This document shows, one piece after another, positions 4,238-35,535 of a stretch of DNA of 64,000 bases (the stretch's first letter is position 1; each line of letters begins with the position of its first letter). Below the pieces are notes generated by a model, which worked only from the letters and a program-made list of their open reading frames with translations, did no database searches and had not been told where the DNA came from. The position numbers and the translations under genes were made by a program. The DNA is taken from positions 60,108 to 124,107 of the forward strand of contig JAFXFF010000044.1 of NCBI GenBank assembly GCA_017520705.1, read 5' to 3'. This DNA comes from Clostridia bacterium (GTDB taxonomy: Bacteria > Bacillota > Clostridia > Oscillospirales > Acutalibacteraceae).

Positions 4238-4268
4238 CGGTGACCCGATCGGGTCACCGTTTTTTCTA
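4238..4268. terminator. Bidirectional intrinsic terminator
   Basis: aaaaaaacggtgacccgatcgggtcaccgttttttc: perfect hairpin flanked by A- and T-tracts. Confidence 0.7.
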
Positions 4269-4448
4269 TTAGTTCTGTCTTCTCACAATGCGGTATTCGT
4301 CACGGACGCGGAAATAGGGGCAGCGATTGTGTCCCGAGGCAAGAAACCGCTCATACTCGTCCATATCCAGATTCATCATACACGCGTAGGTGTCGGTCTC
4401 CTCGTCATAGTCGAAGTAATCGCACTCTTCACAGCGGATATCCTGCAT
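4269..4448 (-). CDS. Small Cys-rich protein (~59 aa), translationally coupled to the upstream glycosyltransferase
   Basis: MQDIRCEECDYFDYDEETDTYAC…HNRCPYFRV (two CxxC-like pairs). ATG lies 2 nt after the GT stop, preceded by GAGGAGG. TAA stop. Confidence 0.5.
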   Translation of the reverse strand: MQDIRCEECDYFDYDEETDTYACMMNLDMDEYERFLASGHNRCPYFRVRDEYRIVRRQN

Positions 4449-4449
4449 A

Positions 4450-9692: not shown

Positions 9693-10048
9693 TTTTGTCC
9701 CTCCTCAATAAGAGCAATTTCAATGCCGACCACACCGTAACGTGCTTGCTTTTCGGCGGAATAATACACATTCATATCCTCAGGAGAGGCGGTGGACAGT
9801 TCTTCCGGCAAATAGCCGCATTGATCCAACGGCAGGGCGGCGTACAACGCCGCGAAATCGGGAAAGCGGTGAAGCGCCGTCACCGTGGCGGTGAGGGTTT
9901 GCGTGGGATTCTCGGTGTGAACAAACACCAAGGTGTCCCCCACCCCAATTTGGCTTCGCTTTTCGTCGTATAGGCGCAGCTCAATGGTTTTGAGGCCCTC
10001 AGCAATCATCGCAAACGGTTGGGGTTGCAAATTCAGGGTATGAATCAT
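9689..10048 (-). CDS. ASCH domain protein
   Basis: ~119 aa, MIHTLNLQPQPFAMIAEGLKTIELRLYDEKR… (ASCH/PUA-like beta-barrel signature). Stop overlaps the start of the phosphoesterase gene (ATGA). Confidence 0.65.
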   Translation of the reverse strand: MIHTLNLQPQPFAMIAEGLKTIELRLYDEKRSQIGVGDTLVFVHTENPTQTLTATVTALHRFPDFAALYAALPLDQCGYLPEELSTASPEDMNVYYSAEKQARYGVVGIEIALIEEGQK

Positions 10049-10133
10049 CCACTTCACCTCATTTTTATCAGTATAGCACACAAAGAATGGAAAGTAAAGA
10101 AAAAAGCCGCTGTTTTTACAGCGGCTTTTGAGG

Positions 10134-11111
10134 TTATTCGCTCTCGGAATGATCCAGGGTGATGTGGATATTGCCGGTATCGGTGGTGATTTCGCACAGG
10201 CCACCGGAGGGAGCAGTATGCGGCAGACGCACATTGCCCGTATCGGTGTGGGTGACAAACACCTTTTGCGTAAGGAGCGTACCCAACACGTCACCCGTGT
10301 CGGTGGTAATTTTCATCGAACCGGCATCGCAGGCGTCAAAGGAAACATCGCCGGTGTCGCGCTCGATGAAAAGGGCGTCGTCAACAAGGAGATCCCGCAT
10401 AAGGATGTCGCCTGTCGTGCCGACAGAGGTGAAATTGCGGCAACGAACACCCTTCACCGCCGTTTTACCTGTAGTCACCGACAAGCGCAGGTCATCGGTA
10501 CTCACGTTCTTAACGGAGATGTCTCCCGTGGATACCGATACATCCAACGAGCCTGCACTAAAGGCCTTCAGTCCGACGTCGCCGGTGGTAGCGCGAATCT
10601 TGGCAGTTCCAACTACTCCGGCAAAAGAGAAGATGTCGCCGGTAGTCACTTTGACGTCCATACTGTCAAAGGTGTAGTAGATGGGAAAATAGACGTCGCC
10701 GGTGGTGGCACGAACGGTCAGATCGCCATATTCTCCTGCAGGAAGATAGACGGTGATAGTGGAGGATTCAAAGCCAATGCCGACGTAGTGATACCACTTA
10801 TGGGATCTCGTTGCCTTGATGACAAGAGTATTGTCCTCTACGGTAACCGTATGTTGGAAGTTGACGTCCTCGTGGCAGACCACCGAGACGGAATCGTCTT
10901 CCGTAGGGACGAATTCGATATCGGCGGTATTCGCCTTGATGGAGATGTGACGGAAGGAATCGGTCACCGCGTGGGTATTGGTCTCATATTCGCGGGTGGA
11001 AAGCTTCTTGAAATCCCAATCGAGCTTGGTCATCACGACCGCAAACAGGATGCAGCCTGCCAATAAGAGAACGGTGGCAATCAGCAACCACACCTTCGTG
11101 CTCTTTTTCAT
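10134..11111 (-). CDS. DUF4097 family putative adhesin / beta-helix protein
   Basis: N-terminal TM followed by repeated TTGD[IV] beta-helix repeats (TTGDVY, TTGDIF, TTGDVG, STGDIS…). Confidence 0.75.
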   Translation of the reverse strand: MKKSTKVWLLIATVLLLAGCILFAVVMTKLDWDFKKLSTREYETNTHAVTDSFRHISIKANTADIEFVPTEDDSVSVVCHEDVNFQHTVTVEDNTLVIKATRSHKWYHYVGIGFESSTITVYLPAGEYGDLTVRATTGDVYFPIYYTFDSMDVKVTTGDIFSFAGVVGTAKIRATTGDVGLKAFSAGSLDVSVSTGDISVKNVSTDDLRLSVTTGKTAVKGVRCRNFTSVGTTGDILMRDLLVDDALFIERDTGDVSFDACDAGSMKITTDTGDVLGTLLTQKVFVTHTDTGNVRLPHTAPSGGLCEITTDTGNIHITLDHSESE

Positions 11112-11716
11112 TGTGCCTCCCCCTTTCTCATACACGCCTTTTTGATGGCGAGGACAATCTTTTGAGTCAGTCGTGCGGCACCCTTGGACGCCGCCTTACA
11201 GCCATAGAAAGCGAAGATGGCGAGGCCGCCGCAGACAAGAGCAGCGGCAAGGACAGCCAGCCCCGAGGGAACGTAGCCGCCGATGGCGAAGCCGATGCCA
11301 CCCACCGGACCGATAACAGCGCAGGCCGCCAGCGACACAAACACCGCCCAGAGAGACACGATCACCGACCACAGCACCGCATACAGCGACAGCACCACCG
11401 CAAAGGCGGCGATCAGCCGCGACAGCCAGATGGGAGACCCGAGAATCAGCAGGACAATCGTCAGTGCGGACATAGGCCTGCGCGAGCGAATACGCACCTT
11501 GATCAATTCCGGGAAGGGGTATTCGTCTACCACCTGCAGGACAATATCGTTCACCGATCCCACGGAGGCCACCGCCTCCTCCTCGGTGAGGCCCTCCTCC
11601 ATACGGTCATCGATCTGCTCGCTGTAAAACTCGATACGCCCGTCAATTTCCTCCTGCGGTAAGCCGGACAGCCCCTGCCGCAGATCGGAAAGAAATTCCT
11701 GTTTACGCATGCTCAT
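11108..11716 (-). CDS. DUF1700 (HAAS) membrane protein
   Basis: MRKQEFLSDLRQGLSGLPQEEIDGRIEFYSEQIDD… N-terminal domain followed by multi-TM Gly-rich region. The canonical PadR-DUF1700-DUF4097 triad. Confidence 0.7.
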   Translation of the reverse strand: MSMRKQEFLSDLRQGLSGLPQEEIDGRIEFYSEQIDDRMEEGLTEEEAVASVGSVNDIVLQVVDEYPFPELIKVRIRSRRPMSALTIVLLILGSPIWLSRLIAAFAVVLSLYAVLWSVIVSLWAVFVSLAACAVIGPVGGIGFAIGGYVPSGLAVLAAALVCGGLAIFAFYGCKAASKGAARLTQKIVLAIKKACMRKGEAQ

Positions 11717-12023
11717 CACCCTCCCTACTGACAAACTGATAAATAGACATCATCTCTGCCCACTCACTCTTAAACTCCTCGATACGGCGGCATCCCGCAG
11801 CGGTAATGCGGTAATATTTCCGCAGGCGGCCGTCGTGCGCCGCGGTGCGGACGGTGAGCATCTCTGCCCCCTCCAACCGCTTGAGAATGGTGTATAACGT
11901 GGACTCGGACAGTTCCATATACGGCTTCATATCCTTGATGATCTTATAGCCGTAGGAGTCTTCGCTCTTGATGGCGGCCAGCACACATACGTCCAAAAGG
12001 CCGCGCTTGAGTTGAACATCCAT
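11703..12023 (-). CDS. PadR family transcriptional regulator
   Basis: LLDVCVLAAI…SYGYKIIKDM…STLYTILKRLE winged-HTH PadR signature. Confidence 0.85.
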   Translation of the reverse strand: MDVQLKRGLLDVCVLAAIKSEDSYGYKIIKDMKPYMELSESTLYTILKRLEGAEMLTVRTAAHDGRLRKYYRITAAGCRRIEEFKSEWAEMMSIYQFVSREGDEHA

Positions 12024-12249
12024 CCAATACCTCCTCTCGTGTAATACATCGTATCACGAGGTATTAGATTTGTCAAGGGGAAAAGGGGGGAAATTGTGAA
12101 AATTTCGTAATTTTGTTTCACAAAATGGAGACGATTTTTTTGAAACAGAAAAAACCGTTAAAAAAATAACCACTTTCGGTCAAAAAAGCGAAAAAAGGTT
12201 GACAACGGCACTAAAAAAGTTTATGTTCTATAATGTATAGTTATATAAT

Positions 12250-12600
12250 TTGGGATATTATACCCAATTCTATGGGAGGTTGGGCGTCTTGACCGAAAAG
12301 GAACTGCGAAAACTGAACCGATACCAGCTTTTGGAGCTGCTGATGATGCAAACGGAGCAAAACCAGCAGCTCAGGCAGGAGATCGAGCATCTGCGAGAAC
12401 AGCAAATGCGGCTGGAGGAGATGGGCTCGGTGGCAGAGGCATCCCTGCTGCTGAACGGTGTATTTGAGGCGGCGCAAAAGGCTGCCGACGACTATTTGAG
12501 CGAGGCGCGCAACCGTGCACAACGGATCGTAGAGCGTGCCCGTCTGGAGGCGGAGTTATTCAATGAAACGGCAACTGTGGAAACCAAGGACGAAACCTAA
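12250..12600 (+). CDS. Small coiled-coil protein (hypothetical); true start probably TTG ~12280-12290
   Basis: Heptad-rich sequence (LRQEIEHLREQQMRLEE). RBS GGGAGG at ~12272. 3' end overlaps the signal peptidase gene. Confidence 0.35.
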   Translation: MGYYTQFYGRLGVLTEKELRKLNRYQLLELLMMQTEQNQQLRQEIEHLREQQMRLEEMGSVAEASLLLNGVFEAAQKAADDYLSEARNRAQRIVERARLEAELFNETATVETKDET

Positions 12601-13183
12601 GCACACCACCACGGTATCGGACACCCCGGAGCCGGAGGCGTTGCAGCAGGAACTCAAACGGGAACGAAACAAACGCCGATTCCGTAAGCTTTTGCGCAGT
12701 ACGGTCAGCGCTCTCATCGTGGCGGCAGCGGTGGCGGCCATCATCGCCACCATGATCCTGCCGGTATTGCAAATTGCCGGTACCAGTATGGAGCCGACCC
12801 TCTACGACGGGGACATCGTTCTGCTGGTCAAAACCGACAAACTGAAGACCGGTGACCTATGCGCCTTCTATTACTCCAACAAGATACTGATCAAACGGGT
12901 CATCGCGACCCCCGGCGACTACATCTGGATCGAGTCTGACGGCACCGTATTTCTCAACGGAGAAAAATTGGACGAGCCGTATCTCACCGTCAAAGCGCTG
13001 GGCGAATGCGACGTAGAATTCCCTTATCAAGTGCCTGAAAACCACTTCTTTATGATGGGGGATCAACGGGAAACCTCGGTGGACAGCCGCAGCAGCGTCA
13101 TCGGCTGTATCCCCGAAGATCAGGTGATCGGTAAGATACTGTGTAAATTCTGGCCCCTATCCCAATTTAACTGGATGGCATAA
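12563..13183 (+). CDS. lepB: Signal peptidase I (catalytic Ser/Lys retained), immediately upstream of the pilus genes
   Basis: TM helix; GTSMEPTL (Ser box); KRVIATPGD (Lys box); GDQRETSVDSR box E. Confidence 0.8.
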   Translation: MKRQLWKPRTKPKHTTTVSDTPEPEALQQELKRERNKRRFRKLLRSTVSALIVAAAVAAIIATMILPVLQIAGTSMEPTLYDGDIVLLVKTDKLKTGDLCAFYYSNKILIKRVIATPGDYIWIESDGTVFLNGEKLDEPYLTVKALGECDVEFPYQVPENHFFMMGDQRETSVDSRSSVIGCIPEDQVIGKILCKFWPLSQFNWMA

Positions 13184-13213
13184 AGTGTTTTAATATCCCA
13201 ACCGCGAGAGGAG

Positions 13214-16200
13214 GTGGAAGGCTTGCCGGAACAGTTAACGCAATACATATCCCAACTGAATAAGAGCAATTCCCGCCGTGCAGGCCTCCGCCAGGCGCTG
13301 TTCGCCCTCTCTCTGGTGGCGATACTCATCGTGTTCTGGTGTCTCAAACTGACCGGTATTACGATGGCCGGCGAAGCCTTCTGCGGCAAAGAAGAACACG
13401 TCCACACAGCCGAGTGTACGCAAACGGGATGTGCATTGGAAGAACATATCCACGACCCCACCTGCTACAGCAACGTCCAAATTGACGTAGAGACCGCCGA
13501 TGACTGGGAGCAGACGCTGGCCGGCATCACCCGCGGCGAGACCACGGCAGAGAACGTGGTGGCGGTAGCCACATCCCAACTGGGGTATCGGGAAAGTACG
13601 CAAAACTTCCAAGTGGACGCGAACGGTGTCCGACGGGGCATCACCCGCTACGGACAATGGTACGGCAACCCCTACGGCGACTGGTCGGCCATGTTTGCCT
13701 CCTTCTGCCTGCACTATGCCGGGGTGACCGACCTGCCTGCCAATGCAGGCGCCGAATCCATGCGACTGGAATGGGCAGAGGACGGCCTGTATCGGGCCGC
13801 GGCCCATTACGCACCGCAGGTAGGCGACCTGCTATTCCTCACCGAAAACGGCAGCACCGCCAACGCGGTGGCAATCATCACCGCTGTGAGTGACAGCGGC
13901 ATCACGGTGATACAAGGTGACGTGGAAGATGCCGTCAGCGAGGTAACCTATCCCCTCGACAGCACGCCTATTCTGGGGTACGGCACCGTGCCTGAACAAT
14001 CGGAGCTGACGGTGCTGGCCACCACACCTGACGGTGCCACCGTGGTGGCGCGTACCACCGCCTATTCAGCCGGTATGCTGACGCAGGGAAACAGCTTCGT
14101 CATCTACACCGTCAGCGGCGGCAACTATTACGCCATCGACGGCAGCGGCAACGCGGTGCCTGTGTACATAGAAAACGGCAACATTTTTGCGGATGTGGCA
14201 GATCCCAACACGCTGCTGTGGAATTTCACCGCCAACGGCTCCTCCTACGTTATCCGAAACGTAGGCACGGGGCGTCATCTCCACCCCTTCTACAACAGCA
14301 ATACCGATAACGGCGTCACCACCTCCGGCGGATGGACCACCTCGGTGGTCACCTCCGGCAACGGCGTCAAATTCCGCGCCTCTGCCTATGCCCGCCTAAA
14401 TGCGAGCGGCGGCAATTTCGTGATGACCCGTAACGAACAGGAGGGCACCGTATTCCAGTTTGGTGTGGTCAACAACCGCACCGTCTGGCTGGACGGTACC
14501 TGCGGAGGGATTATGAGCTTGGGCGGCTCCCCCAACACACCCTATACGGTGCTGCAGGGTGACGTCGTGAAACTTCCCACCGAATGGAAATCTCCTGACA
14601 AATACGCATACAAGCTGCGCGGCTGGTACGACGTGACCAACAACCGCTACTATCTGCCCGGTGCAGAGGTGACGGTCACCGACCATATGGTATTCTACGC
14701 CGATTGGACAGCAGAAACCTACGACGTGGGCCAATTCAATTCCCACGTAGCGGAAACCACCAGCACCAACCAGTTTGTCACTGTCCGTATGTTTGACTAC
14801 GGGCCTCTGTTCAACCTCTTATCCACACGAGCCAACGTCACGGTAAACAGCAGCGGACACACCGAGACCTGGAACCTCTTGACCTCCGGAAACAATCCCT
14901 ACAACGGAGATCCTACGCTGAACTTCATCTTCCGTGACTGGGACCGCGGCAACGAGGATATCTCCTATCCCAACGGCACCAATGCGGCTAACAACCCCAC
15001 CGACGCCGGCAGCGTGTATCCGGGACTGTATACGGATAACTTGGGCAGCCTGCTCTTCGACCCCGAATTGCAGGTCCTCGGCAAACAGTATTTGGGTGAG
15101 GGCGATCATCTATTCCAGCTCTGTGTGGATCCCAACGATCCCAATTACGGCTATTACTACTACGATTCCCAGCGCAACGCGGCATCGTATAACCAAAGCG
15201 ACGGACGCTTCTATGTCTACGACTATCTGGAGTGCACCCGCGACTCGCTGAACAACGGTTATGCAGACTTTTTGCCACTGAACTCTCCCTACGCCAATAC
15301 CAATGGCAAGCTCATCCCCACCTACCAATACGGAGGTGTCAACGGTGAATACGACGGTGTGACCCACTATTCGTACGACAGTAAGTACAACACCAACGGC
15401 AACAACACCGACCACGTGGGCGCCAACTACTGGTATGGTATGAGCGTAGACATTCAGTTCTATCTCCCCCACGTCCCCGGTACGATACTGGAAAACGGTC
15501 GATACGGCAACCAGGACCTCTACGGCGGCGATATGCACTTCCATTTCGCCGGCGACGACGACGTATGGGTGCTGGTGGACGGCAAAATGGTGCTGGACCT
15601 GGGCGGTATCCACGGTGTCGAGAACGGCGATATCAACTTCTCCACCGGCGTGGTCACCGTCAACGGCAGGGTGAATACGGCATTGTCCAACACCCTCAAG
15701 AGCATCTAGCCCGGCGAGCACACACTGACCCTCTACTATCTGGAACGCGGTAGTTCCAAATCCAACTGCGCTTTCCGTTTCAATTTGGCGCCCCGATTCA
15801 GCCTCGCCCTTCAAAAAGAGGACGTGCTGACCCGCCACCTGCTCAACGGTGCCCAGTTCTCGGTCTTCACCGACAAAGCCTGCACCCAACCGGCCACCCT
15901 GTGGACCAGCCAGCAGGCCTACTACGCCAACGAGGATCCCAACCACGTATTTACCGTTGTAAACGGTAAAGCCGATATGTGGGGACTCATCGCTGGCGAG
16001 ACCTATTACATCGTGGAGACCAAGCCGCCCGACGCCACCGGCTACATCGGAGCGGACGGCATTATCTGCCTGACCATCGACAAAAACGGTATCGCCTCCT
16101 ACTCGGTGGAGGTGAGGGAGAACGCTGACGGCGAACTTTCGCCCGGTTTCACGGTCCACGGTGTGAAAATTGATGAGGAAACCCAGCAAGCCTTCCTCAT

Positions 16201-17509
16201 CGCCACTAACGCGCCCGAGACCATCACCGAAGCCACCAGCGTGACAGTGAACAAGATCTGGGACGACGACAAGGATCACTCCGCCGATTACATCACGGTG
16301 TATTTGACGGTGACCGACCCCGACGGGACGGTGCGCCGCATCCGTGAAGTGATCCTCAGCGCGGAGAACAACTGGCAGTATACGTGGGAAAACCTTCCCA
16401 AGACCGACGCCGACGGCAACATCGTCCAATACGGCGTCAGCGAATCCACCGTTCCCGGCTACGTGAGTCGGGTTGAGATCACAGAAGGACCGCCGGGAGG
16501 TGACAGCTCCGACGGTGAAGGTAGTGGTCCCGGAGATGTGACAGCGGTGGGGAGCTTCCAAAACGGCCAAACCTATCTGCTGAGCACCAGATTCGGCTGG
16601 CTGACCGCCAACAACAATCAGTTGGGACTGGTCACCAATCAGCAGACTGCCGCCGGCTCCGACAGCGCCCTGTGGGTGGCAACGGTTAACGGTGACGGCA
16701 CCGTCACCCTGACCAACAAACGAGGACAAACCCTCTATTACGACAACTACACCTTCAAGGCAGGCTCCTCACCGGGAACCTACAAAAACCTCCGCTTTGC
16801 GGACAACCGTCTATACTGCTATATCAATCACGGCGGGTGGAGCGAGACGCAATATCCCATTGACGACGACAACGTCCCCAGTAACCTGACCTACAACCAC
16901 GTGTTGTATACCACCAACAACAGTGCACAAGCCCTGGTGATCACACCGCAGGCTCTGGGCGGCAGTCCGCCGGAACCCGAGCCTGAGCCGCCTCCCGACA
17001 GCGGCGGAGGTGACAAACACTTCCAGATCACCAACACGCCGGCAGGCCAGGCCGTCACCTCCCTTACCGTCCATAAGATATGGGATGTAGGCGACCTGGG
17101 AGATGCCTCGCTGTACGAGAAGCTGGTGGTACAAATCCGTCTGCTGGCTAACGGCGTGGACGCCGGCCTTACAGGTCAGCTCAGCCTCAAGAACGGATGG
17201 GTCTACACCTTCCAGGATCTGCCACTATACGACAGTGGCGGTCAAATGGTGGTGTACACCGTGGAGGAACAATTCATCTCGGAGGATTGGATCGTGCACT
17301 ACGGCAACGTCATCTCCTCCGGCGGAAGCAGCCCCACCTACACGGTCAACGTGACCAACACGTACCGAACAGGGGGGCCCATGTTGCCGGCCACCGGCAC
17401 GGCGGCACGTCTGTACTTTGTACTGTGCGGAGCGAGCATCATGCTCGGAACGCTGGTATACGGATTTGCATTGAGGCGTAAGCGTAAGCGAGAAAGGAGG
17501 TTAGAGTAG
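13214..17509 (+). CDS. Giant LPXTG pilus tip adhesin (CHAP/NlpC-like, fibro-slime/PA14-like, beta-trefoil-like, 2x CnaB), interrupted by an in-frame TAG at 15707-15709. Possible pseudogene, phase-off allele or readthrough.
   Basis: Track ORFs 13214..15709 and 15785..17509 are in the same frame; the translation reads …NTLKSI*PGEHTLTLYYLERGSSKSNCAFRFNLAPRF… uninterrupted except for TAG. C-terminus is LPATG + TM + RRKRKRERR. Probable start TTG 13223 after GAGGAGG. Confidence 0.75.
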
Positions 17510-17601
17510 CCTTCTGATCGCGGCAAAACTTGCGCCGTGAATGCAGATCTTAAGTAAACTGTAAACCAAAAAATTTTTAAATTCAGAAAGGAAGAAAACT
17601 C

Positions 17602-19104
17602 ATGAAAAAGATCGTTACTCTGTTACTGGTCCTGGCACTCACCCTGAGCCTGTCCTGCGCGGTTTCTGCCGCTGAGGTCGGTTCCATTACCATCAACAAC
17701 ATTGCCGCCGACACCACCTACGAGATCTACCAGCTGTTGGATCTGGAGAGCTATGACAGCGTCTCCGGTGCCTACTCCTACAAGGTAAACAGTGCCTGGA
17801 CCGCCTACTTCGACACCGCCGAGGCGCAGGCCTACATCACTGTGGATGCCGCCGGCTATGTGACCTGGGTGGCCGGTGAGGACGATGCCACCGTGGCCGC
17901 CTTCGCACAGAAGGCTTTGGCCTATGCCGAGGCCCACAGCATTGCCCCCGTTAAGTCCTCTCAGAATCCCGGCGATTTCGCCATCACCGGTACCACCGGC
18001 GTGTTCTCCGATCTGCCTCTGGGCTACTATCTGGTAGACTCCACCGCCGGCGCCCTGTGCGGCCTGACCACCACCGACCCCGACGCCGCCATCAACGCTA
18101 AGAACGGCGTGCCCACCATCGACAAGCAGGCGCAGGAAGATCTGAGCGGCATGTGGGGCGACCACAACACCGCCGACATCGGCCAGATCGTCAACTTCAT
18201 GACCATCATCCACGCTGCCCCCGGTGCCCAGAACTACGTGATGCACGATACCATGTCTGCCGGTCTGACCTTTGTGCAGGATACCGCCAACGACCGCGGC
18301 GTCACTCAGGTCGTACATATCAACAGCCTGGGTGTGGAAACTGTTCTGACCCCCGGCATCGACTACACCGTCAACGATGCCCCCTCCGATAGCTGTACCT
18401 TTGAAGTGGCTCTGACCGAAAGCTTCATCGGCACCCTGAAGGCCAACGACCGCATCATCACCTACTACAACGCCATGCTGAACCGTCACGCCATCGCCGC
18501 CGGCGATGGTAACCCCAACGAGAGCTGGCTGGAGTACGGCGAAGAGAAGTACACCACCCACGATCAGACCAAGACCTACACTTTCTCCATTGACATTGTT
18601 AAGACCGATTCCTCCAACAAGCTGATCGACGGCGCTAAGTTCAAGATCTACGACGCCGCCACCGACGGCAACGAGATCAAGGTCGTGCCCCTGAAGGAGG
18701 CCGACGACGTGACTCCCGTGCTGGATGCCAACGGCAACCCCGTCTATCGCCGTGCCCGTGCCGACGAGGAAGGTGTGGAGATCGAGGTCGTCGACGGTAA
18801 GGTGACCGTGGTGGGCTTTGACAATGGTGTCTACTATCTGGAGGAGACCGCTGCCCCCGCCGGTTACAACAAGCTGACCGCCCGTAAGGAGTTCACCATC
18901 GCCGACGCCAACCTGGATTCCGTCTTCAGCGGCGGCATCTACTCCACCGGTTCCGGCGTGCACGTGGTCAACAAGACCGGTACCATGCTGCCTGAGACCG
19001 GCGGCGTGGGCACTGTCATCTTCGTAGTGCTGGGTACCCTGGCCGTGCTGGGTGCCGGCGTGCTGCTGGTGACCAAGAAGAGAATGGCTATGATCCAGGA
19101 GTAA
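17602..19104 (+). CDS. Major pilin (SpaA-like) with E-box and LPETG sorting signal
   Basis: Signal peptide; E-box YYLEETAAPAGYNKL; LPETGG + TM + KKR tail. Confidence 0.85.
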   Translation: MKKIVTLLLVLALTLSLSCAVSAAEVGSITINNIAADTTYEIYQLLDLESYDSVSGAYSYKVNSAWTAYFDTAEAQAYITVDAAGYVTWVAGEDDATVAAFAQKALAYAEAHSIAPVKSSQNPGDFAITGTTGVFSDLPLGYYLVDSTAGALCGLTTTDPDAAINAKNGVPTIDKQAQEDLSGMWGDHNTADIGQIVNFMTIIHAAPGAQNYVMHDTMSAGLTFVQDTANDRGVTQVVHINSLGVETVLTPGIDYTVNDAPSDSCTFEVALTESFIGTLKANDRIITYYNAMLNRHAIAAGDGNPNESWLEYGEEKYTTHDQTKTYTFSIDIVKTDSSNKLIDGAKFKIYDAATDGNEIKVVPLKEADDVTPVLDANGNPVYRRARADEEGVEIEVVDGKVTVVGFDNGVYYLEETAAPAGYNKLTARKEFTIADANLDSVFSGGIYSTGSGVHVVNKTGTMLPETGGVGTVIFVVLGTLAVLGAGVLLVTKKRMAMIQE

Positions 19105-19215
19105 TCTTAGTCTCTTGTCCATTTTCTCGCTGACTAATTAATCGATATCCCCGGCGGAGGTATCCGCCTCCGCCGGGGATAGAGTTAAGTATTCCACAAC
19201 ATCAGGGGGAAGCCT

Positions 19216-20052
19216 ATGCTGAGCAAAAAAGCGACAATCCTATTGCTGGTCTTCTTTTTCATAGGTTTGTCCGTGCTGTTGTATCCCAGCATCAGCAGCT
19301 ACTGGAACTCCAAGACCCAGAGTGAGGCCATTGTAGACTACGAGGAGATGCTGGCCAACTACAAGCCGGAGGACCGCACCGCCCTCTTTGAAGCCGCCGA
19401 CGCCTACAATCAAAAGCTGGCGGCACTATTCCAGCCCCTGCAGGAGTATGGGGCACTATCCGAGGAATACTGGAAAACGCTGGACGTCACCGGAACGGGC
19501 ATGATGGGGTACATCACCATACCCAAAATCAGTCAAGAGCTGCCCGTCTACCACGGCACCTCAGATGCGGTGCTGGGTAAATCGGTGGGCCATCTGCAGG
19601 GCTCCAGCCTGCCGGTGGGCGGTGTCAGCACCCACAGCGTGGTATCCGCCCATCGCGGACTGCCCTCGGCGGTGCTGTTTACCCACCTGGATCGCATGGA
19701 GGTGGGCGACACCTTTTCCTTCACCATCCTGGACCGCACCTTTACCTATGAGGTGGATCAGATCCGCATCGTGGAGCCGGACGACACCAATCTGCTCCGC
19801 TTAGAGACGGGCAAGGACTACTGCACCCTGCTGACCTGCACCCCCTACGGTATCAACACCCAGCGTCTGCTGGTACGAGGTCACCAGATCGACGCCAGCC
19901 AAAAGAGCAATCTCTACATCGCCAATGAAGCCTATCGGGTGGACACCCTCATCGTCACACCCTTGGTGGCGCTGCCCATCATTTTGGCCCTGCTCATCTA
20001 CGTGATGCTGGCCCCCGTCAAGAAAGAACAGTTAGGAGAGGATACGCTATGA
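19216..20052 (+). CDS. srtC: Class C (pilus-polymerising) sortase
   Basis: N-terminal TM; HRGLP (His); TLLTCTPYG (Cys); LLVRGH (Arg); C-terminal TM lid/anchor. Confidence 0.9.
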   Translation: MLSKKATILLLVFFFIGLSVLLYPSISSYWNSKTQSEAIVDYEEMLANYKPEDRTALFEAADAYNQKLAALFQPLQEYGALSEEYWKTLDVTGTGMMGYITIPKISQELPVYHGTSDAVLGKSVGHLQGSSLPVGGVSTHSVVSAHRGLPSAVLFTHLDRMEVGDTFSFTILDRTFTYEVDQIRIVEPDDTNLLRLETGKDYCTLLTCTPYGINTQRLLVRGHQIDASQKSNLYIANEAYRVDTLIVTPLVALPIILALLIYVMLAPVKKEQLGEDTL

Positions 20053-20954
20053 CAAAACGAATACTTGCGTGTGTGCTGGCGGTATTCTGCCTGCTGATGC
20101 CTCTGTCGGTGCAGGCGGAGGAATTGAACACCGAGCAGCTGTGCAATCTGACGCTGGAATATTCCCACGAGGGGGTGGCCTTTGCCGATGTGGAAGTGGC
20201 TATCTATCGGGTGGCAGAAGCGCATACGGACGGCTCCTACGACCTCATCGCGCCCTATGACGCATACTCCGTCAACATCCACGGCATCACCTCCCAAAAG
20301 GAATGGCAGGACGTGGCGGCTACCTTAACCGCCTATATTACCGCCAACGGGGTCGAACCCACCGCGAGCGGAGTCACCGACAAGGCGGGCGAGGTGGTTT
20401 TGAGCGACTTGCCCGTAGGATTGTACCTCGTACAAGGTGCCCGTGCCGAAAATGAAAAGGGCACCTACGTATTCCGCGAGTTTATGATCTACCTGCCCAC
20501 GCCTGCAGAGGACGGCACCTACCAATACGATCTGCGTGCGAAGCCCAAATGCCACCAGTACACCCCCACCGAAAACTATCGGGTGGTGAAACTGTGGAAG
20601 GACACGGGTAGCGCCCTGCGCCCCGATGAGGTGGTGGTGGACATCTACAAGAACGGTGCGCTCCACGAGACGGTGTCGCTGAATGGAAACAACGGCTGGA
20701 GCTATGAATGGACCGACAAGGAACAAGCGCGGTGGCAGGTGACAGAGCGGGACGTGCCGGAGGGCTATCAGGTATCCGTCACCAACCACGAGACGGTATT
20801 TACCATCACCAACGCAAACCCCGACGCTCCTCCCCCGCCACCCGCTACGGGGGACAGCTTCCCTTGGCTGATGTGGGTTGTGATCGTATGTCTGGTGGGC
20901 TTTGCGCTGGTGCTGGTGGCTCTGTGGGGACGACGATATGAAAAGACGAAATAA
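20049..20954 (+). CDS. Minor/basal pilin with CnaB-type domain and non-canonical PPATG sorting signal
   Basis: Signal peptide; YRVVKLWKD… CnaB fold; PPPPATGDSFPW + TM + GRRYEKTK. Confidence 0.7.
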   Translation: MTKRILACVLAVFCLLMPLSVQAEELNTEQLCNLTLEYSHEGVAFADVEVAIYRVAEAHTDGSYDLIAPYDAYSVNIHGITSQKEWQDVAATLTAYITANGVEPTASGVTDKAGEVVLSDLPVGLYLVQGARAENEKGTYVFREFMIYLPTPAEDGTYQYDLRAKPKCHQYTPTENYRVVKLWKDTGSALRPDEVVVDIYKNGALHETVSLNGNNGWSYEWTDKEQARWQVTERDVPEGYQVSVTNHETVFTITNANPDAPPPPPATGDSFPWLMWVVIVCLVGFALVLVALWGRRYEKTK

Positions 20955-21501
20955 GTGGATACTGTGGGCGGGTGTAGCCCTCATTGCCGTCAGCCTGTGT
21001 GCGGCGGCGGTGTTCGGCCTGCTCCAGCGACGCGGCGAGCGACAGGCGGCGGACATCGCACGGCAAATCGAGGCGGCACTGCCGCCCCGCACCGTGGGCG
21101 CGGAAGAGGCCTACAGCGTGATGCAGATGCCTGCCCTGAGCATTGAGGGCGAGGACTTTGTGGGGCTGGTGGAGATCCCCGCCTACGGGGTCACGCTGCC
21201 CCTCTGTGACGAGTGGCAGCCTACCCAGCTGAACCGCTATCCCTGCCGCTTTTGGGGTACGGCGTATGACGGCAGTCTCATCATCGGCGGCGGTGCCAAA
21301 CAGTTTGCCTGCCTCGGGCAGATACAAAACGGCGACGAGGTGCGGGTGACGGATATGCAAGGGGCGGTGTTCACCTACACCGTGACCCGTATCCGCCGTA
21401 CCGACCACGCGGATGCAAAGACACTTAAAAATGAAGCGTCACTCACGCTGTTTGCGCGGGACGGAGCCAATATGGAGTATATTATAGTAGAATGTATGTA
21501 A
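20938..21501 (+). CDS. Sortase-fold protein lacking the His-Cys-Arg catalytic triad (degenerate sortase paralog)
   Basis: N-terminal TM. Aligns block-by-block with the srtC product (LVEIPAYGVTLPL ~ ITIPKISQELPVY; FTYTVTRIRR ~ FTYEVDQIRI), but HRG becomes GGGAKQ, TLLTC becomes TLFARD, and the protein ends before the Arg. Confidence 0.55.
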   Translation: MKRRNKWILWAGVALIAVSLCAAAVFGLLQRRGERQAADIARQIEAALPPRTVGAEEAYSVMQMPALSIEGEDFVGLVEIPAYGVTLPLCDEWQPTQLNRYPCRFWGTAYDGSLIIGGGAKQFACLGQIQNGDEVRVTDMQGAVFTYTVTRIRRTDHADAKTLKNEASLTLFARDGANMEYIIVECM

Positions 21502-21502
21502 A

Positions 21503-21542
21503 AAAATAACCGCAACCTCTGTGAGGTTGCGGTTATTTTTCG
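21503..21542 (+). terminator. Intrinsic terminator ending the pilus operon
   Basis: aaaaaaataaccgcaacctc-tgtg-aggttgcggttatttttcg. Confidence 0.75.
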
Positions 21543-21754
21543 TGTAGGAATCATCGCGCATCTTCCTCACGCCACGCAAAAAGGGTCGGCCGGGATAGAC
21601 GCCGAGAGATGCTGGACGGTCAAAACCCTTAGTTTGCGCTATGCGCAAACTAAGGGGGCAAGTCCATACCTCCCGAGCCAAGTAAAAAGACCCGCCATAA
21701 TGTGGCGGGTCTTTTTACTTGGGAATAACGAACAGGTTTAATAGAATGCCAAAA

Positions 21755-21892
21755 GACGGGGTGCATCTCACTTTTAGGTGGGGTGCCTTTTTGCTTTTCC
21801 CGGGGTGCAAATGAGGTGCAACCCGAAAACCGGGTGAGGTGCATCCTCCTCCGGGTGGGGTGCAAACCACACCCCGGGGTGCAACTTAGAAC
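21755..21892. repeat. Cluster of ~7 GGGGTGCA(A) heptamer/octamer repeats
   Basis: ggggtgcatc / ggggtgcc / ggggtgcaaatgaggtgcaa / gggtgaggtgcatc / ggggtgcaaac / ggggtgcaac within 140 bp. Confidence 0.6.
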
Positions 21893-22362
21893 GAAGCCTC
21901 ATAATAATAGAAATTTCCACAGATGTGCTCTGTATAATACCGATTATCCCCATTGGGTTCTTGACACTCAAATCCATTTCCGGAAGGAGTCAACGCACTG
22001 GCAGACGACGGTGCGCACCACACAGCAGCCATATCGTTTTCCGAGGTATAATAGAAACCTACATAAGAGGTACCCGAACCTACACCAGCACCACCACAGG
22101 AAAAGTCAACAACCGTTTCGTCTGCATCGATTTCTTTGATAAAGCCTTTATTCTCATATGCAGAAAAGTCTCCAGCTTCAATTGCCTTCAGCAGTTCTTC
22201 CTCATTCTCACTCACGAAATCAAAAACCTCGTCTTTATCGGCGCTATCATCCCCTGTTGCGACAAGGAAAAGGAAAAAAGCACCACCCAAGATATCCGAG
22301 CACCCAGACAGAGAAAACACCATAATTACAGCCAAAAGCAGGGCTAATCCTTTTTTTAGCAT
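21886..22362 (-). CDS. Lipoprotein of unknown function
   Basis: MLKKGLALLLAVIMVFSLSGCS lipobox; Cys/Tyr-rich C-terminus. Confidence 0.55.
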   Translation of the reverse strand: MLKKGLALLLAVIMVFSLSGCSDILGGAFFLFLVATGDDSADKDEVFDFVSENEEELLKAIEAGDFSAYENKGFIKEIDADETVVDFSCGGAGVGSGTSYVGFYYTSENDMAAVWCAPSSASALTPSGNGFECQEPNGDNRYYTEHICGNFYYYEASF

Positions 22363-22366
22363 ATTC

Positions 22367-22948
22367 TCACTCCCGTCCCAGCAGCAGCGCATATTGGTTA
22401 GACAAAACTTTTGACAAAACGCAGAACACCGCAGACATTACCACACCACACCACACCAGCGGTGATGACATCGCAATCCCACCTGCATAGTGGATCGTCG
22501 CCCAAACATATCCCAAAAGCGTGATTCCTAAGGTTGCAAGGCAGGAACAGACAGAAAAAATCTTTCGATTTTTATACACCCGGAGGAAAAACCAGTTTGC
22601 CAGAGACAAGAGGTATCCGGTTGCAGGAACAATCAGCGCCACTGCCCACAATCCGTTGGTATTTCCTGTAGGGGTACTACCTTCTAAAATTACACCCAGC
22701 GTAATAATGGCAAAGGAAACGAATAGCATTACCGATTGTAGGACAGACGCTTTCCAATCACTCACACGACGCAGCTTCACAGTATTCGGTTTTTCTTCAA
22801 AACTTTGGCATGTCTCACGCATCTGATCATATATTTTGCGGCAACTCTCACATGCGTCAAGATGCTCGGCTACAAGTCTTGCACTTTCTTCCGAACAACA
22901 TTCATCCACGTATAGGGGCAGCAGATCCATTATTACATTGCAGTCCAT
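22367..22948 (-). CDS. Anti-sigma factor, zf-HC2 type, with TM domain
   Basis: MDCNVIMDLLPLYVDECCSEESARLVAEHLDACESCRKIY (HxxxCxxC zinc motif) followed by 4 predicted TM helices. Confidence 0.75.
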   Translation of the reverse strand: MDCNVIMDLLPLYVDECCSEESARLVAEHLDACESCRKIYDQMRETCQSFEEKPNTVKLRRVSDWKASVLQSVMLFVSFAIITLGVILEGSTPTGNTNGLWAVALIVPATGYLLSLANWFFLRVYKNRKIFSVCSCLATLGITLLGYVWATIHYAGGIAMSSPLVWCGVVMSAVFCVLSKVLSNQYALLLGRE

Positions 22949-22949
22949 A

Positions 22950-23414
22950 TTATCGACCCAATCCTTCCATAATTTTTTGTTTGGCACGGTAGTAAGTAAC
23001 ACGAGCCCAGCTTTCACTTTTTCCAAACATCGCACTGATATCTTTCAACGATAGGCCGCCAAAAACAGAAAGCATAAAAACTTCTTTGTATGGCTCTTCC
23101 AAGGCGTGCAGGAGGGAAAAGGCTCTGCCGGCAAGTTCCTTTTCCTCGAAAAGCTCGGCAATGTCAGGTGTGCTATCCGCAGATATTGGCTGTGAAATTG
23201 GCTGATTTCTTTTCTGTTCGTTGAACCAAGCAAAGTATGTATTTTTTGCAATTTGGCACAGCCATAATGCTACTTTTTCTTCGTTTCTCAGAGCTGATAA
23301 GTTCATATACGCACGAAAAAAGGTTTCCTGCGTTAGTTCCTCTGCCAAAGATACATCACCGCATAGTTTCATCAAAAAACGAAAAACGAATTGATCGTTC
23401 TCTCGGAACACCAT
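22950..23414 (-). CDS. ECF (sigma-70 family) RNA polymerase sigma factor
   Basis: Region 2 (FRFLMKLCGDVSLAEELTQETFFRAY) and region 4 (GGLSLKDISAMFGKSESWARVTYYRAKQKI). Stop abuts the anti-sigma start. Confidence 0.8.
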   Translation of the reverse strand: MVFRENDQFVFRFLMKLCGDVSLAEELTQETFFRAYMNLSALRNEEKVALWLCQIAKNTYFAWFNEQKRNQPISQPISADSTPDIAELFEEKELAGRAFSLLHALEEPYKEVFMLSVFGGLSLKDISAMFGKSESWARVTYYRAKQKIMEGLGR

Positions 23415-23550
23415 TTCAAAGTCCAGCACACCCTCACCACCTTTCACTTATTAGATTGGGAAATAGTAAAAACGTTACAATTATTATACAGACACCAGCG
23501 TGATTTTTCAAATATGTTGCGAAATAAGTTCTATACTGTTGATCCGTCGA

Positions 23551-23690
23551 ACTAACCCATTAGCTACACACAAGTCTCTTTCGTTACACGCAGACCCTAT
23601 TCGCTACACGGAGAGCACTATTGGTTACACGGAGACCCCTATTAGTTACACGGCGACTTCAATTCGTTACACGGCTAAATAGGGGTAATT
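23551..23690. repeat. Six tandem ~21-bp iteron-like direct repeats (core GTTACACGGnGA…CTATT)
   Basis: tagcTACACacaagtctcttt / cgtTACACgcagaccctatt / cgcTACACggagagcactatt / ggtTACACggagacccctatt / agtTACACggcgacttcaatt / cgtTACACggctaaatagggg. Confidence 0.8.
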
Positions 23691-23821
23691 TCAAAGAAAT
23701 ACACATTCCAAAACAGCCGATTTCTATAAATGTTCTTTTTTATATAAAATATGTGTATTTTCGCTGTTGTTTTGAATATAAAAAGTTCCCGTCTAACTCT
23801 ATCAAAGTTAGACGGGAAATG

Positions 23822-23906
23822 TGGTGCGAGGGAGGGGACTTGAACCCCCACGCCATTTGACACACGCACCTCAAACGTGCCTGTCTGCCGATTCCAGCAC
23901 CCTCGC
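23822..23906 (-). tRNA. tRNA-Leu (anticodon GAG), type II with long variable arm, CCA encoded
   Basis: Reverse complement GCGAGGG-TG-CTGGAATCGGCAGA-…CACGT-TTGAGGT-GCGTG-…-GGGGGTTCAAGTCCCCT-CCCTCGC-A-CCA. 7-bp acceptor stem, T-loop TTCAAGT, anticodon loop TT-GAG-GT, discriminator A73 (Leu-type). Confidence 0.75.
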
Positions 23907-24057
23907 ATATAACAGCGCTTATTATACCACCTCCTTTTCCCCGTGTCAATGCTTTTCCAGCCTTTTCCGATTAAAAATCGAACGAAAGTCTTGACAATTT
24001 TTCGACAATCCAGCATAATAGTAATGATATTATTGAATGAATGCGAGGTGTTTCCTA

Positions 24058-24695
24058 TGGCAAAGGATTCTACCATCTCCCTGCAAGTGATTCGACGTCT
24101 GCCCCGCTACTACCGCTTCCTATACGATCTGAAGGAAAACGGCATCACCCGTATCTCCTCCCGCGAGTTGGCTCAGCGTATGCGGCTGACCGCCTCTCAG
24201 ATCCGTCAGGATCTCAACTGCTTCGGCGGATTCGGTCAGCAGGGCTACGGCTATTTGGTGGACCAGCTGTACGACGAGATCGGACACATCCTGGGTATGG
24301 ATCAGCTAACCAAAACCATCCTGCTGGGTGTGGGCAATTTAGGTACGGCTGTGGGCAACCACATTGACTTCAAATCCCGCGGATTTAATTTGATCGGTCT
24401 TTTTGACGACAACCCCGAGCTGGTGGGTGACACCCGTGCAGATATGGTCATCCGCTCCACCGACGAGATAGAGGAGTTTTGCCGCAGAGAGAAACCCGAG
24501 ATGGCGGTGCTGTGCATCCCAAAGGAGGCGGCTCCCCGTCTGGTGGAGGTGCTGGTGGGTTGTGGTGTCAAGGGTTTTTGGAATTTCTCCCACTACGACA
24601 TCCTACACGACTATCCCGACGTCATTGTGGAGAACGTACATATGGGTGACAGCCTGATGACCCTCTCCTATCATATGGTGCAAGAAGAAAATTAA
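24058..24695 (+). CDS. rex: Redox-sensing transcriptional repressor Rex
   Basis: VIRRLPRYYRFL…NGITRISSRELAQRM… winged helix + Rossmann GVGNLGTAV NADH-binding motif. Confidence 0.9.
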
Positions 24696-33280: not shown

Positions 33281-33821
33281 AGCCCTCCTTTTCCAGCTCT
33301 GATCTTAAGGCGTTTTTGGCGCGGAAAACCAAGTTCTTCATTTGGCGGGACGTCTTACCCATCACGGCGGCTGTCTCGGCGTGGGACAGATCCTCAAAAT
33401 AGAGCAACCAAAGCACCTGCCGATACTCGGTATGCAACCGGTTCAAGGCTTGGTGCAAGACAATTTTTTGCTCCTCGACAAGATAATTTTGTTCCAAATC
33501 GAAACGATCGCCGGCCGTGCCCTCTAACTCGTTCAACGAGATATCCGCTCGCTTTTGGCGGCGGAGATAATCGATAGCAACGTGACGACCGATGGTATAC
33601 AGCCACGTTTTGAATGAATAGGCAGAACGGTACTTCGGCTTTTTCGTGATGAGTTTGAAAAGCGTCTCCTCCATCAGCTCCTCGGCAGTAGAGAAATCGT
33701 TCACAATACCGCAAAGATAGAGGGTCAGTCCGTCACTGTACTCCCGCACGATTTCCGCTAAACCCGTATCGTCGCCGTCAAGGAAACGGCGGTAGCTACT
33801 GGCACCGTTGTCCATTGACAT
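33258..33821 (-). CDS. ECF sigma factor (copy 1 of tandem duplicate)
   Basis: Regions 2 and 4 (EELMEETLFKLITKKPKY…; LYFEDLSHAETAAVMGKTSRQMKNLVFRAKNALR). Confidence 0.8.
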   Translation of the reverse strand: MSMDNGASSYRRFLDGDDTGLAEIVREYSDGLTLYLCGIVNDFSTAEELMEETLFKLITKKPKYRSAYSFKTWLYTIGRHVAIDYLRRQKRADISLNELEGTAGDRFDLEQNYLVEEQKIVLHQALNRLHTEYRQVLWLLYFEDLSHAETAAVMGKTSRQMKNLVFRAKNALRSELEKEGFVYEELR

Positions 33822-34955: not shown

Positions 34956-35535
34956 AATTCTCCTTTTCCAATTGTGTCTTGAGCGCCTGCTTTGCCCGAT
35001 ACACCAAATTCTCGATCTGGCGGCGGCTCTTATTCATCGCCACCGCCGCATCGGCATTGCTGAAGCCGTCAAAATAGGTCAGGTACAGCACTTGGCGATA
35101 GTCCTCTCTCAGCTTACGCAGGGCTCTGTGCAGGGCGATCTTCTGCTCCTCTCGCAAACAGGAACGCTCCACGCTTTCCTCCTCCACGAGGCAGTGCTCC
35201 AGGTCGTCAATGGGGGTATCGGCCATCCGCTTGTGATGGCGGAGGTAATCCATCACTACATTGCGGCCGATGGTATACAGCCAGGTCTTGAACGCGTATT
35301 TTTCTGTGAATTTCGGCTTTTTGGTTACGATTTTAACGAAGGTCTCCTCCATCAATTCTTCCGCAACGAAAATGTTGTTCACATAGCCGTTCAGGTAGAG
35401 GATCAAGCCGTCTTTGTAATCGCGTATGATCTCAACAATGCCCTCGTCGTCACCATCGAGGAAACGGCGGTAGCTACTTGCACCGTTATCCATGGACTGC
35501 CTCCTTTCCGAAAGGTAGTGTGATTGCCCTTTCAC
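34936..35535 (-). CDS. ECF sigma factor (copy 2 of tandem duplicate)
   Basis: Paralogous to 33258..33821 (MSMDNGASSYRRFLDGDD… identical N-terminus). Ends with a bona fide TAG stop. Confidence 0.8.
   Translation of the reverse strand: MKGQSHYLSERRQSMDNGASSYRRFLDGDDEGIVEIIRDYKDGLILYLNGYVNNIFVAEELMEETFVKIVTKKPKFTEKYAFKTWLYTIGRNVVMDYLRHHKRMADTPIDDLEHCLVEEESVERSCLREEQKIALHRALRKLREDYRQVLYLTYFDGFSNADAAVAMNKSRRQIENLVYRAKQALKTQLEKENFVYEEL

Follow-up and report, generated by a model that had tools for sequence, protein, structure and literature searches.

What is an array of short, phased direct repeats doing between a tRNA gene and a sigma-factor operon? The question is raised by a window of 64,000 nucleotides from a Clostridia bacterium of the Acutalibacteraceae (contig JAFXFF010000044.1 of assembly GCA_017520705.1, positions 60,108 to 124,107), which is the whole stretch of DNA analysed here. 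In this window six direct repeats of about 21 bp lie on the minus strand at 23552..23674, 3' of tRNA-Leu(GAG) and upstream of an operon that encodes an extracytoplasmic function (ECF) sigma factor, an anti-sigma factor and a lipoprotein. Positions given without a locus name are those of the window, and related loci fetched for comparison carry L numbers. We find that the array belongs to a boundary module which moves independently of the genes on both sides, and that the 3' end of the tRNA gene is a true hotspot of integration and variability. Tentatively, we read the array as a cooperative protein-binding platform in the frame of a mobile islet that has no recombinase of its own.

Geometry and conservation of the array

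Tandem Repeats Finder reported the array at 23580-23674 with a period of 21, 4.6 copies, 81% matches and a score of 113, which none of 100 block-shuffled windows reached (shuffle maximum 79). Repeat search, core search and orthologous alignment delimit six units, here called type A, at 23674-23654, 23653-23633, 23632-23612, 23611-23592, 23591-23572 and 23571-23552. On the minus strand they follow the pattern tCCGTGTARC-n-AATAG-nnnn-tct, with core variants of the form (C/G)(C/T)GTGTA(A/G)C. Five units are good, and the promoter-proximal one (GTGTGTAGC, 23552-23571) is degenerate, so that the six-unit array with a degenerate edge unit described in the initial annotation is borne out by Tandem Repeats Finder, shuffles and core search alike. 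The exact periodicity of about 21 bp that had been stated with it holds for the period but not for every step: unit starts at 23674, 23653, 23632, 23611, 23591 and 23571 give spacings of 21, 21, 21, 20 and 20 bp, and a separate repeat search returned start-to-start distances of 20/21/21. The core GYTACACGS has five matches in the window, all five inside the array; its minus-strand form CGTGTARCnAATAG does not recur elsewhere in the window, and the core motif was found nowhere else in 778 kb of related loci. These counts refer to the window, which is the host-genome sequence covered, and to the fetched loci.

The same array recurs in relatives found in gut Oscillospiraceae metagenomes, where the number of units ranges from two to seven: two in L109, three in L006, five in L008 and L098-100, six in the window and in L009, and six to seven in L090 and L091. 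Units can be aligned one-to-one across the window, L098, L009, L008, L006, L090 and L091, and one 20-nt unit, CCGTGTAGCgaatagggtct, was found in five loci; the differences in copy number therefore represent gains and losses of whole units. Among 20 units from four loci, the positions CGTGTA-C-AA(T) are conserved at 95-100% (9-10 positions of the unit at 95% or more), compared with about 40-60% in a block of 4-5 nt. Identities between orthologous parts are 97% for the hairpin upstream of the array, 81-85% for the leader that precedes the first unit, 88% for the array core, 73-76% for its variable part and 67% for the spacer between hairpin and leader, the last figure being pairwise among the window, L098, L090 and L091. 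This pattern argues for sequence-specific recognition of the core and against a neutral minisatellite, and the array is a conserved cis element that bears the signature of protein-binding sites. Simple slippage of low-complexity DNA, which had been named at the outset as a possible refutation, agrees with the data in so far as copy number varies from two to seven, but the units are individually recognisable and their divergence is concentrated in the block of 4-5 nt. As the units have diverged from one another (81% match), recent slippage is unlikely. The array is old and changes by gain or loss of whole units; it is not the product of fresh slippage.

A boundary module at tRNA 3' ends

On the minus strand the order of elements is tRNA-Leu(GAG), hairpin, AT-rich spacer, leader, array, a single unit of a second repeat type (type B), sigma-A promoter, ECF promoter and operon. 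The tRNA gene (23822..23906, minus strand; ARAGORN, Rfam tRNA), at whose 3' end synteny stops, has a TTGACA-17-TATAAT promoter of its own according to a promoter scan. It is followed on the same strand by the 15-bp-stem hairpin TTCCCGTCTAACTTTGATAGAGTTAGACGGGAA with a T run (23786..23818; terminator scan, inverted-repeat search), an AT-rich spacer of about 78 bp (23708..23785), which is the least conserved part of the module, and the 33-bp leader AATGTGTATTTCTTTGAAATTACCCCTATTTAG (23675..23707), which precedes the first unit in every case. The hairpin serves as the predicted terminator of tRNA-Leu(GAG); read as duplex DNA, it consists of 13-bp perfect inverted arms that flank TTGATAG. The array had initially been placed directly downstream of the tRNA. 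It does lie 3' of that gene, but about 145 bp of other conserved sequence separate the two, and both this larger module and the second repeat unit between array and promoter had been overlooked.

Hairpin, spacer, leader and array recur together. Scanning metagenomes for pairs of cores spaced as in the array brought up two loci, L090 and L091, which possess the same hairpin, spacer and leader and an array of six to seven units, without the ECF operon. The module stands directly after the CCA end of tRNA-Leu(GAG) in the window, of tRNA-Leu(TAA) in L090 and of tRNA-Leu(CAA) in L098-100, and in L091 it follows a 21-nt second copy of the 3' end of tRNA-Arg(ACG). Behind it we found three unrelated cargos: the ECF operon in the window, a lipoprotein gene in L090, which is separated from the array by a terminator-like hairpin and about 330 bp, and a LOR-family gene in L091, which is preceded by a TTGAAA-17-TATAAT promoter. 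The sequences of L090 and L091 part immediately past the last core. The leader retains many invariant columns across seven loci (at the pairwise identity given above). The cassette occurs in at least eight flanking contexts at about 90% nucleotide identity and, in addition, on very many contigs of 1-2 kb. The array is thus part of a boundary module whose movement does not depend on the genes that flank it.

The synteny break coincides exactly with the end of the tRNA gene. Five loci share with the window the genes ileS, DUF1858, TrmK, esterase and Rex (Rex 89-91% identical to that of the window) as well as an identical tRNA-Leu(GAG); their BLAST alignments stop at 23822, and the DNA past the CCA differs in each. 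In L102 and L104 only 0.6-0.9 kb separate the tRNA from an ASCH gene, whose counterpart by alignment is window 9700-10084, compared with 13.7 kb in the window, and an unannotated 123-aa gene takes its place in L105, L107 and L108. The window carries about 13.7 kb (about 10300-23821) that are missing from all five syntenic relatives, comprising a PadR-like/HAAS/DUF4097 unit, a signal peptidase, an 831-aa protein, a sortase-pilus operon (two LPXTG pilins, a Cna_B protein and two sortases) and the ECF islet; the GC content of the 22-24 kb segment is 0.42-0.45, compared with about 0.57 around it. The integration hotspot that the initial annotation had suspected at this tRNA end is therefore real, as the homology stop in five relatives demonstrates. 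Past tRNA-Leu(GAG) in L102 (4100-4760), a module of about 220 bp is present in two to three tandem copies, each with a terminator and tRNA-like T-arm (GGTTCAAAGTCCCC) and D-loop (TGGATAGAGCATC) pieces in permuted order.

At its far end the islet closes with an element of about 165 nt (21719..21883, minus strand), in which TGCACCCC is repeated six to seven times, partly 21-23 bp apart, and which has the tail CTCTATTAAACCTG..TTATTCCCAA, ending ...CTCTATTAAACCTGTTCGTTATTCCCAA. A bidirectional terminator with a 20-bp stem follows (21678..21722, an inverted repeat). Matches to the far-end element were obtained with nhmmer in L090 (7257-7414), L099 (1936-2086), L015 (1186-1344), L109 (1980-2071) and L007 (1528-1618): it closes the L090 islet with its different cargo, the ECF islets of L099 and L109 and, partly, L007, and in L015 it lies behind an unrelated gene. 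The element has no match in Rfam, and its RNA structure (z of -1.2 and -2.4, one covarying pair) shows unconvincing covariation. The 2,153-bp contig L099 is essentially one islet. In L109, only 4 nt past the far end of the ECF islet, a sister left end begins with a hairpin, a spacer and two type-B repeats; the hairpin has different stems and the same apex TTTGATAGAG, and this left end is 85% identical to that of L003 and fronts a DUF134/ABC-transporter cargo. Islets are concatenated head to tail.

The type-B repeat, TTCGACGGAC (GTTCGRCGGACTATCCCCC), occupies the same slot in the sister module with one to five units at a period of 19-22 bp, and type-B left ends front the ECF operon in L003-5, L010/11, L092-95 and L101. 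The single type-B unit of the window, AGTTCGACGGATCAACAGTATAG (AGTTCGACGGATCAAC...; 23531..23553, minus strand), aligns with the promoter-proximal unit of the arrays in L003, L005, L010, L092-94, L101 and L109. This lone unit inside a type-A module gives the window islet the look of an ECF cargo that has retained its last type-B unit and sits within a type-A frame, with the A/B hybrid junction at the array edge. Type-B islets close with another element, in which GTGAACCCCC is repeated four times, and one of them has flanking direct repeats of 72 nt (92% identical) and 37 nt (95%) together with a 17-bp inverted repeat, CGCATATTTTGATAKAA (p<0.003). Hairpins with other stems but the apex TTTGATAGA are present in L003/L109 and L006/L009, and 16 of the 24 occurrences of TTTRATAGA in 893 kb are situated at islet ends. 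Before 23S_rRNA_IVP genes the same layout is seen with a third repeat type, GATTTCATC. The idea that type A is type B in inverted form was rejected, since the best cyclic match (10/21) equals the median of shuffled units.

Several further observations concern these borders. In L009 (4120-4300) and in L106, inverted copies of GATGAAAT/GGTGAAAT are followed by four to five direct GATTTCATC repeats, which in L106 lie between tRNA-Leu (4765-4849) and the IVP gene (4178-4495); the GATTTCATC repeats reach into the -10 box of 23S_rRNA_IVP and lie just past a tRNA and a hairpin with apex TTTGATAGA. Multi-hairpin segments of about 130 nt sit between tRNA-Arg, or a remnant of it, and the islet (L005, L010, L091 4440-4560, L092 3470-3610, L101 55-175); they end with GGAAGGGACTCG ... 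CGAGTCCCTTCC, inverted and direct copies of the tRNA-Arg 3' end that face each other. Just upstream of the tRNA remnants that precede islets, neighbouring elements carry genes for large serine recombinases or tyrosine integrases (L011 2-1582, L092 1984-3768, L003 3569-4474, L009 405-1271). A comparison of L011 with L010 places a serine-recombinase element in tRNA-Arg(CCG), which it interrupts near TCCGGTGTACCA.

Possible roles of the array

A cis element resembling protein sites, a boundary module that moves on its own and a hotspot at the tRNA 3' end together lead us to favour, with due caution, a docking platform for a protein that acts on the mobile islet, the repeats being accessory or arm-type recombination sites. 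The array would then be a selected, cis-acting, multi-site platform in the left end of a small cargo-swapping islet, this left end consisting of the strong hairpin, the AT-rich spacer, the 33-bp leader and two to seven phased 21-bp sites, and being placed at tRNA 3' ends or immediately after the far end of the islet before it. The 13-14 bp cores could be occupied along one helix face by a sequence-specific DNA-binding protein that forms oligomers and has its gene elsewhere in the genome, and the resulting nucleoprotein complex might serve recombination or mobilisation of the islet in an accessory or arm-type role, like the arm sites of lambda-type att or DR1/DR2 of integron attI, with a possible side effect on transcription entering the cargo. 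The array, its conservation, the modular linkage, the exact synteny break and the swapped cargos are observed; we infer the binding, the identity of the protein and a purpose in recombination rather than in transcription. Breakpoints at array edges, namely the A/B hybrid in the window and the divergence of L090 and L091, count in the same direction. The site of an integrated element or recombinase accessory site that was among the first suggestions for this array is, at the same cautious level, the reading we favour.

A number of findings weigh against the docking platform. No recombinase, transposase, relaxase, Rep or Par gene is present in the islet or in the 13.7-kb segment, and none of the islets examined has a gene for a recombinase, transposase or relaxase. 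Near the islet no copy of the tRNA-Leu 3' end reaches 10 nt, the window contains no direct-repeat copy of it, and an inverted match of 10/11 between hairpin apex and far end of the type-A islet in the window is not significant by itself (p 0.14-0.3) and serves as no more than a lead. In L006, L008 and L009, leader and array stand behind a 23S_rRNA_IVP gene with hairpin and spacer missing, and the leader is the upstream limit of homology there. Far-end and left-end repeat motifs differ, unlike those of Tn7/Mu-type ends or lambda arms, and for arm-type sites it is unusual to find six to seven in an uninterrupted row that starts about 145 bp from the junction. Because repeats are in themselves prone to recombine, breakpoints at array edges are no proof of site-specific recombination. 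Moreover, the last unit starts about 60 bp before a TTGAAA -35 box in the window and about 62 bp before one in L091, and since the arrays lie upstream of promoters a purely transcriptional role fits much of the data.

The comparison with known systems is likewise mixed. As in lambda attP (P'1-P'3) and integron attI1 (DR1/DR2), direct repeats with a short core lie inside an element near its junction with a tRNA 3' end, an AT-rich stretch and a core-like palindrome (13-7-13) lie close by, and the repeat motif differs between sister lineages (types A and B). The junction itself is at the tRNA 3' end (23822), as in lambda-type att, and involves three tRNA-Leu isoacceptors and a partial tRNA-Arg copy. 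Unlike in lambda-type att, the tRNA 3' end is not duplicated in the window, although type-B islets do have direct repeats of 72 nt and 37 nt, and there is no tyrosine integrase in islet or island, recombinases being seen only in neighbouring elements of some loci; the sites are also more numerous (six to seven, at a 21-bp period) and further off (about 145 bp) than classical arm sites. The hairpin arms may resemble GTTRRRY/RYYYAAC, and GTTACRC may resemble the attI DR sites. The ends of Tn7, Tn5053 and Mu resemble the islet in having several contiguous sites of about 20 bp near an element end, here just downstream of a tRNA gene, and a second repeat cluster, here partly at 21-23 bp spacing, at the other end. 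They differ in that the motifs at the two ends of the islet are unrelated (TGCACCCC at the far end) and that the array is not terminal, about 145 bp of hairpin, spacer and leader lying outside it; neither tnsA/B/C-like genes nor a target-site duplication came to light. The islets resemble the cis-mobilisable elements (CIMEs) of streptococcal integrative and conjugative elements (ICEs) and the cargo-only tycheposon remnants of Prochlorococcus, which are small units without recombinase accreted head to tail at tRNAs, with partial tRNA copies and neighbouring integrase or serine-recombinase elements (here in L003, L009, L011 and L092). Those units are bounded by tRNA-derived att direct repeats, whereas the A-type islet lacks such repeats, its two ends being formed by hairpin plus array and by a C-rich repeat element. 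Clustered regularly interspaced short palindromic repeats (CRISPR), in which repeats of 23-50 bp alternate with unique spacers of about the same length, usually beside cas genes, were dismissed from the start and are indeed no match for contiguous 21-mers in which only a block of 4-5 nt varies, and no cas genes were seen. None of the families compared has all of its defining features represented here. By analogy, the geometry is that of iterons, arm-type sites or LytTR operators, and the genomic behaviour comes closest to tRNA-anchored islets and BOX-like repeats; a phased array of protein-binding repeats at the edge of a mobile islet is, provisionally, the description we prefer.

The main rival, possible though in our view somewhat unlikely, is an operator or upstream activating sequence. 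A response regulator encoded in trans, or another oligomerising activator or repressor, would bind the phased sites cooperatively and control the sigma-A-type promoter some 50-60 bp past the last unit, thereby setting basal expression of the ECF operon or other cargo. That predicted promoter (TTGAAA-17-TATAAT, 23483..23511, minus strand; 11/12 match in the promoter scan) is a good one, the 20-21 bp phasing runs on through the type-B unit to it, and the near-identical promoter distance in L091 and in the window fits such a role, as does the fact that type-B and GATTTCATC repeats also adjoin promoters; a conserved core next to a variable block is typical of protein-binding sites. LytTR operators (AgrA, ComE, VirR), with repeats of 9-12 bp at a 21-22 bp period, share the period, the direct orientation and the place upstream of a promoter, but CGTGTARC and GTTACACG fit their 9-bp consensus [TA][AC][CA]GTTN[AG][TG], which is repeated with a 12-bp spacer, at only about 6/9 by eye, the units are six instead of two, and no LytTR gene was seen beside any array. 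By-eye comparison of the core with the consensuses of the DnaA box, Spo0A box, WalR, Rex, CcpA cre, PadR and RTP/Ter gave no convincing fit. An operator is difficult to reconcile with one and the same array fronting unrelated cargos at variable distance, with the terminator-like hairpin and 330 bp that intervene in L090, or with type-B repeats about 250 bp from the cargo promoter in L109; no regulator gene travels with the array, and the core is found nowhere else in the window or the 778 kb of related loci, to which the search was limited. An array without function is unlikely. The repeats would in this case be a minisatellite or a modular intergenic repeat resembling BOX or miniature inverted-repeat transposable elements (MITEs), either subunits of a selfish element or a neutral, hitch-hiking tandem repeat of variable number. 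Copy number does change by whole units between two and seven, no binding protein has been identified, and conserved flanks around a variable number of tandem subunits, intergenic, in many contexts and with no enzyme, are features of pneumococcal BOX elements (boxA-boxB(n)-boxC). BOX, however, has folding subunits of 45 bp where the present units are 21 bp long and similar to protein sites, and the module studied here is anchored at tRNAs and has cargo genes between its ends. The steep difference between the 9-10 nearly invariant positions and the 4-5 nt block, and between core (88%) and adjacent spacer (67%), also stands against it; concerted evolution would homogenise entire units and not the cores alone.

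Could the units instead be reiterated promoter boxes, that is, a row of weak ECF promoters or a sink for the sigma factor feeding the operon? Each unit would supply a -35-like TGTAAC(G)AAT and the next one a -10-like AACTAATAG; we consider this very unlikely. The predicted ECF-type promoter of the window (TGTAACGTTT-N-ATCTAATA, 23449..23479, minus strand) belongs to a set of about 80 loci from different species in which boxes TGTAACG(T/A)TT ... ATCTAATAG, a constant distance apart, immediately precede the ribosome-binding site, mostly with TATAAT before TGTAAC, distant homologous loci included. These boxes are probably the autoregulated ECF promoter of the sigma family, situated behind a sigma-A promoter. 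A position weight matrix built from 71 distant loci scores the window ECF promoter at 39.2 bits, its top match, and array positions rank second to fourth (18.7, 10.0 and 9.1 bits) against 6.4 bits for the best position outside the array; every type-A array yields a match of 11-20 bits, and the array has the orientation of the operon. Yet the best array score stays far below that of the weakest true promoter (24.6 bits), background reaches 15-18 bits in 1.5 Mb, and the spacing is off by +1 from the fixed one that the family has between the TGTAAC -35 and the ATCTAATA -10 box. ECF -35 boxes require AAC, which is destroyed in the 8 of 20 units that read TGTAGC, while the invariant CG before TGTA falls outside the ECF box; type-B arrays lack such resemblance, and in L090 a terminator lies behind the array. 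The likeness of the units to ECF boxes is measurable, but is too weak to explain the array, and the pattern of conservation is wrong for it. Replication iterons or a parC-like centromere of an integrated plasmid or ICE, which the initial annotation had considered, are highly improbable. Six units at 20-21 bp, near an AT-rich stretch and at a tRNA hotspot, do correspond to the classical geometry of iteron origins (R6K, pPS10, P1, F: four to seven direct repeats of 17-22 bp, at about two helical turns, the usual mark being at least three such phased repeats). Here, however, the array is chromosomal and linked to tRNA genes, its neighbours being ECF sigma, anti-sigma, lipoprotein and Rex; initiator gene, DnaA box, plasmid or ICE backbone and similarity to plasmid records are all lacking, no ParA/ParM/ParR-type gene is adjacent, and no rep, par, relaxase, integrase or conjugation gene occurs in the islet, the 13.7-kb island or, for rep, par, relaxase and conjugation genes, beside the array in related loci. 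Cassette and left-end module gave no blastn match in 72,556 plasmids or 50,697 phages. Viral contigs lack the cassette, contain no match to hairpin, leader or far-end motifs and no relative of the sigma protein, and the two-core motif has two matches there, at chance level and in unrelated contexts. Iteron and partition readings fail on every feature except geometry. A coding role is scarcely credible: as 21 bp equal seven codons, the repeats could encode a heptad peptide, and a plus-strand open reading frame (23500-23682) of 60 aa, ...PIRYTES TIGYTET PISYTAT..., does span the array, but it lacks a ribosome-binding site, the units of 20 nt put successive repeats out of frame, and the peptide was rejected on finding no frame open across the arrays of seven loci. 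For this reading and for an equally improbable structured RNA, Pfam and Rfam gave no match, and the units are not self-complementary.

A wider proposal is one that we put forward as doubtful. The islets may constitute an undescribed family of small, enzyme-less, cargo-swapping cassettes in gut Oscillospiraceae (Faecousia and relatives), stacked head to tail at the CCA ends of several tRNA genes, with a lox-like hairpin (apex TTTGATAGA) and a phased array of lineage-specific units of about 21 bp to open them and a C-rich repeat element, in which the same motif is inverted, to close them. The array would dock a recombination system acting in trans, an integron-like platform made from other parts. 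To our knowledge, integrons are essentially unknown in the phylum.

The sigma-factor cargo and its wider meaning

The position of the array upstream of an ECF sigma, anti-sigma and lipoprotein operon, as first described, agrees with the open reading frames and Pfam domains. The sigma gene (22950..23429, minus strand, in the 159-aa reading; alternative starts 23414 and 23447) matches Sigma70_r2 and Sigma70_r4_2 in Pfam and sigma70-ECF in NCBIfam above the cut-off, with SigM as the nearest subfamily; its 165-aa reading has no exact protein record, and readings of 154 and 159 aa are on record. It is followed on the same strand by a membrane anti-sigma factor (22367..22948; Pfam zf-HC2), which corresponds to a 193-aa gene call in L001, and by a putative lipoprotein of 158 aa (21886..22362), recognised from its signal peptide and Cys, for which there is no Pfam or NCBIfam family match. 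In an Rfam scan of 21000-24200 the tRNA was the sole family, the remainder being sub-threshold terminator look-alikes. The block of promoter and operon (23549-21876) is about 90% identical among loci with unrelated flanks. Relatives of the sigma factor at 93-100% identity number in the thousands in metagenomes, mostly on contigs of 1-2 kb, and more distant ones are spread over more than 500 species-level genomes of Faecousia, Acutalibacteraceae, Oscillospiraceae and Ruminococcus; the arrays are confined to the closest lineage. A literature search on 21-bp repeats upstream of ECF sigma genes or on tandem ECF promoters found nothing relevant.

Elsewhere in the window there are two more ECF sigma paralogues (33306-33752 and 34981-35430), each 25% identical to the one studied here, which lie 1.7 kb apart and have repeated flanks (Tandem Repeats Finder, CCAGCGACA at 33142 and 34817). 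A 356-aa protein with HTH_3 and TPR domains (2967-4037) has the architecture of a peptide-sensing regulator of the RNPP/Rgg type. At 62343-62491 a GC-rich tandem repeat, CACGGGAGG..., with nested periods of 15/30/45/75 and scores of up to 230 is probably coding.

Whichever reading applies, many contigs of 1-2 kb end at islet borders, which shows that the module repeatedly causes assembly breaks in gut metagenomes. Were the array an operator, it would represent a regulator input to a sigma operon whose conservation extends over more than 500 species-level genomes. If, on the other hand, it is a handle by which an enzyme acting in trans moves or shuffles the cassettes, the combination of hairpin, leader and array would provide a signature for finding such cassettes in metagenomes, and it would show how abundant but uncultured gut Clostridia swap small regulatory and envelope modules without a recombinase for each module, the exchanged unit being in this case a complete ECF sigma signalling unit.

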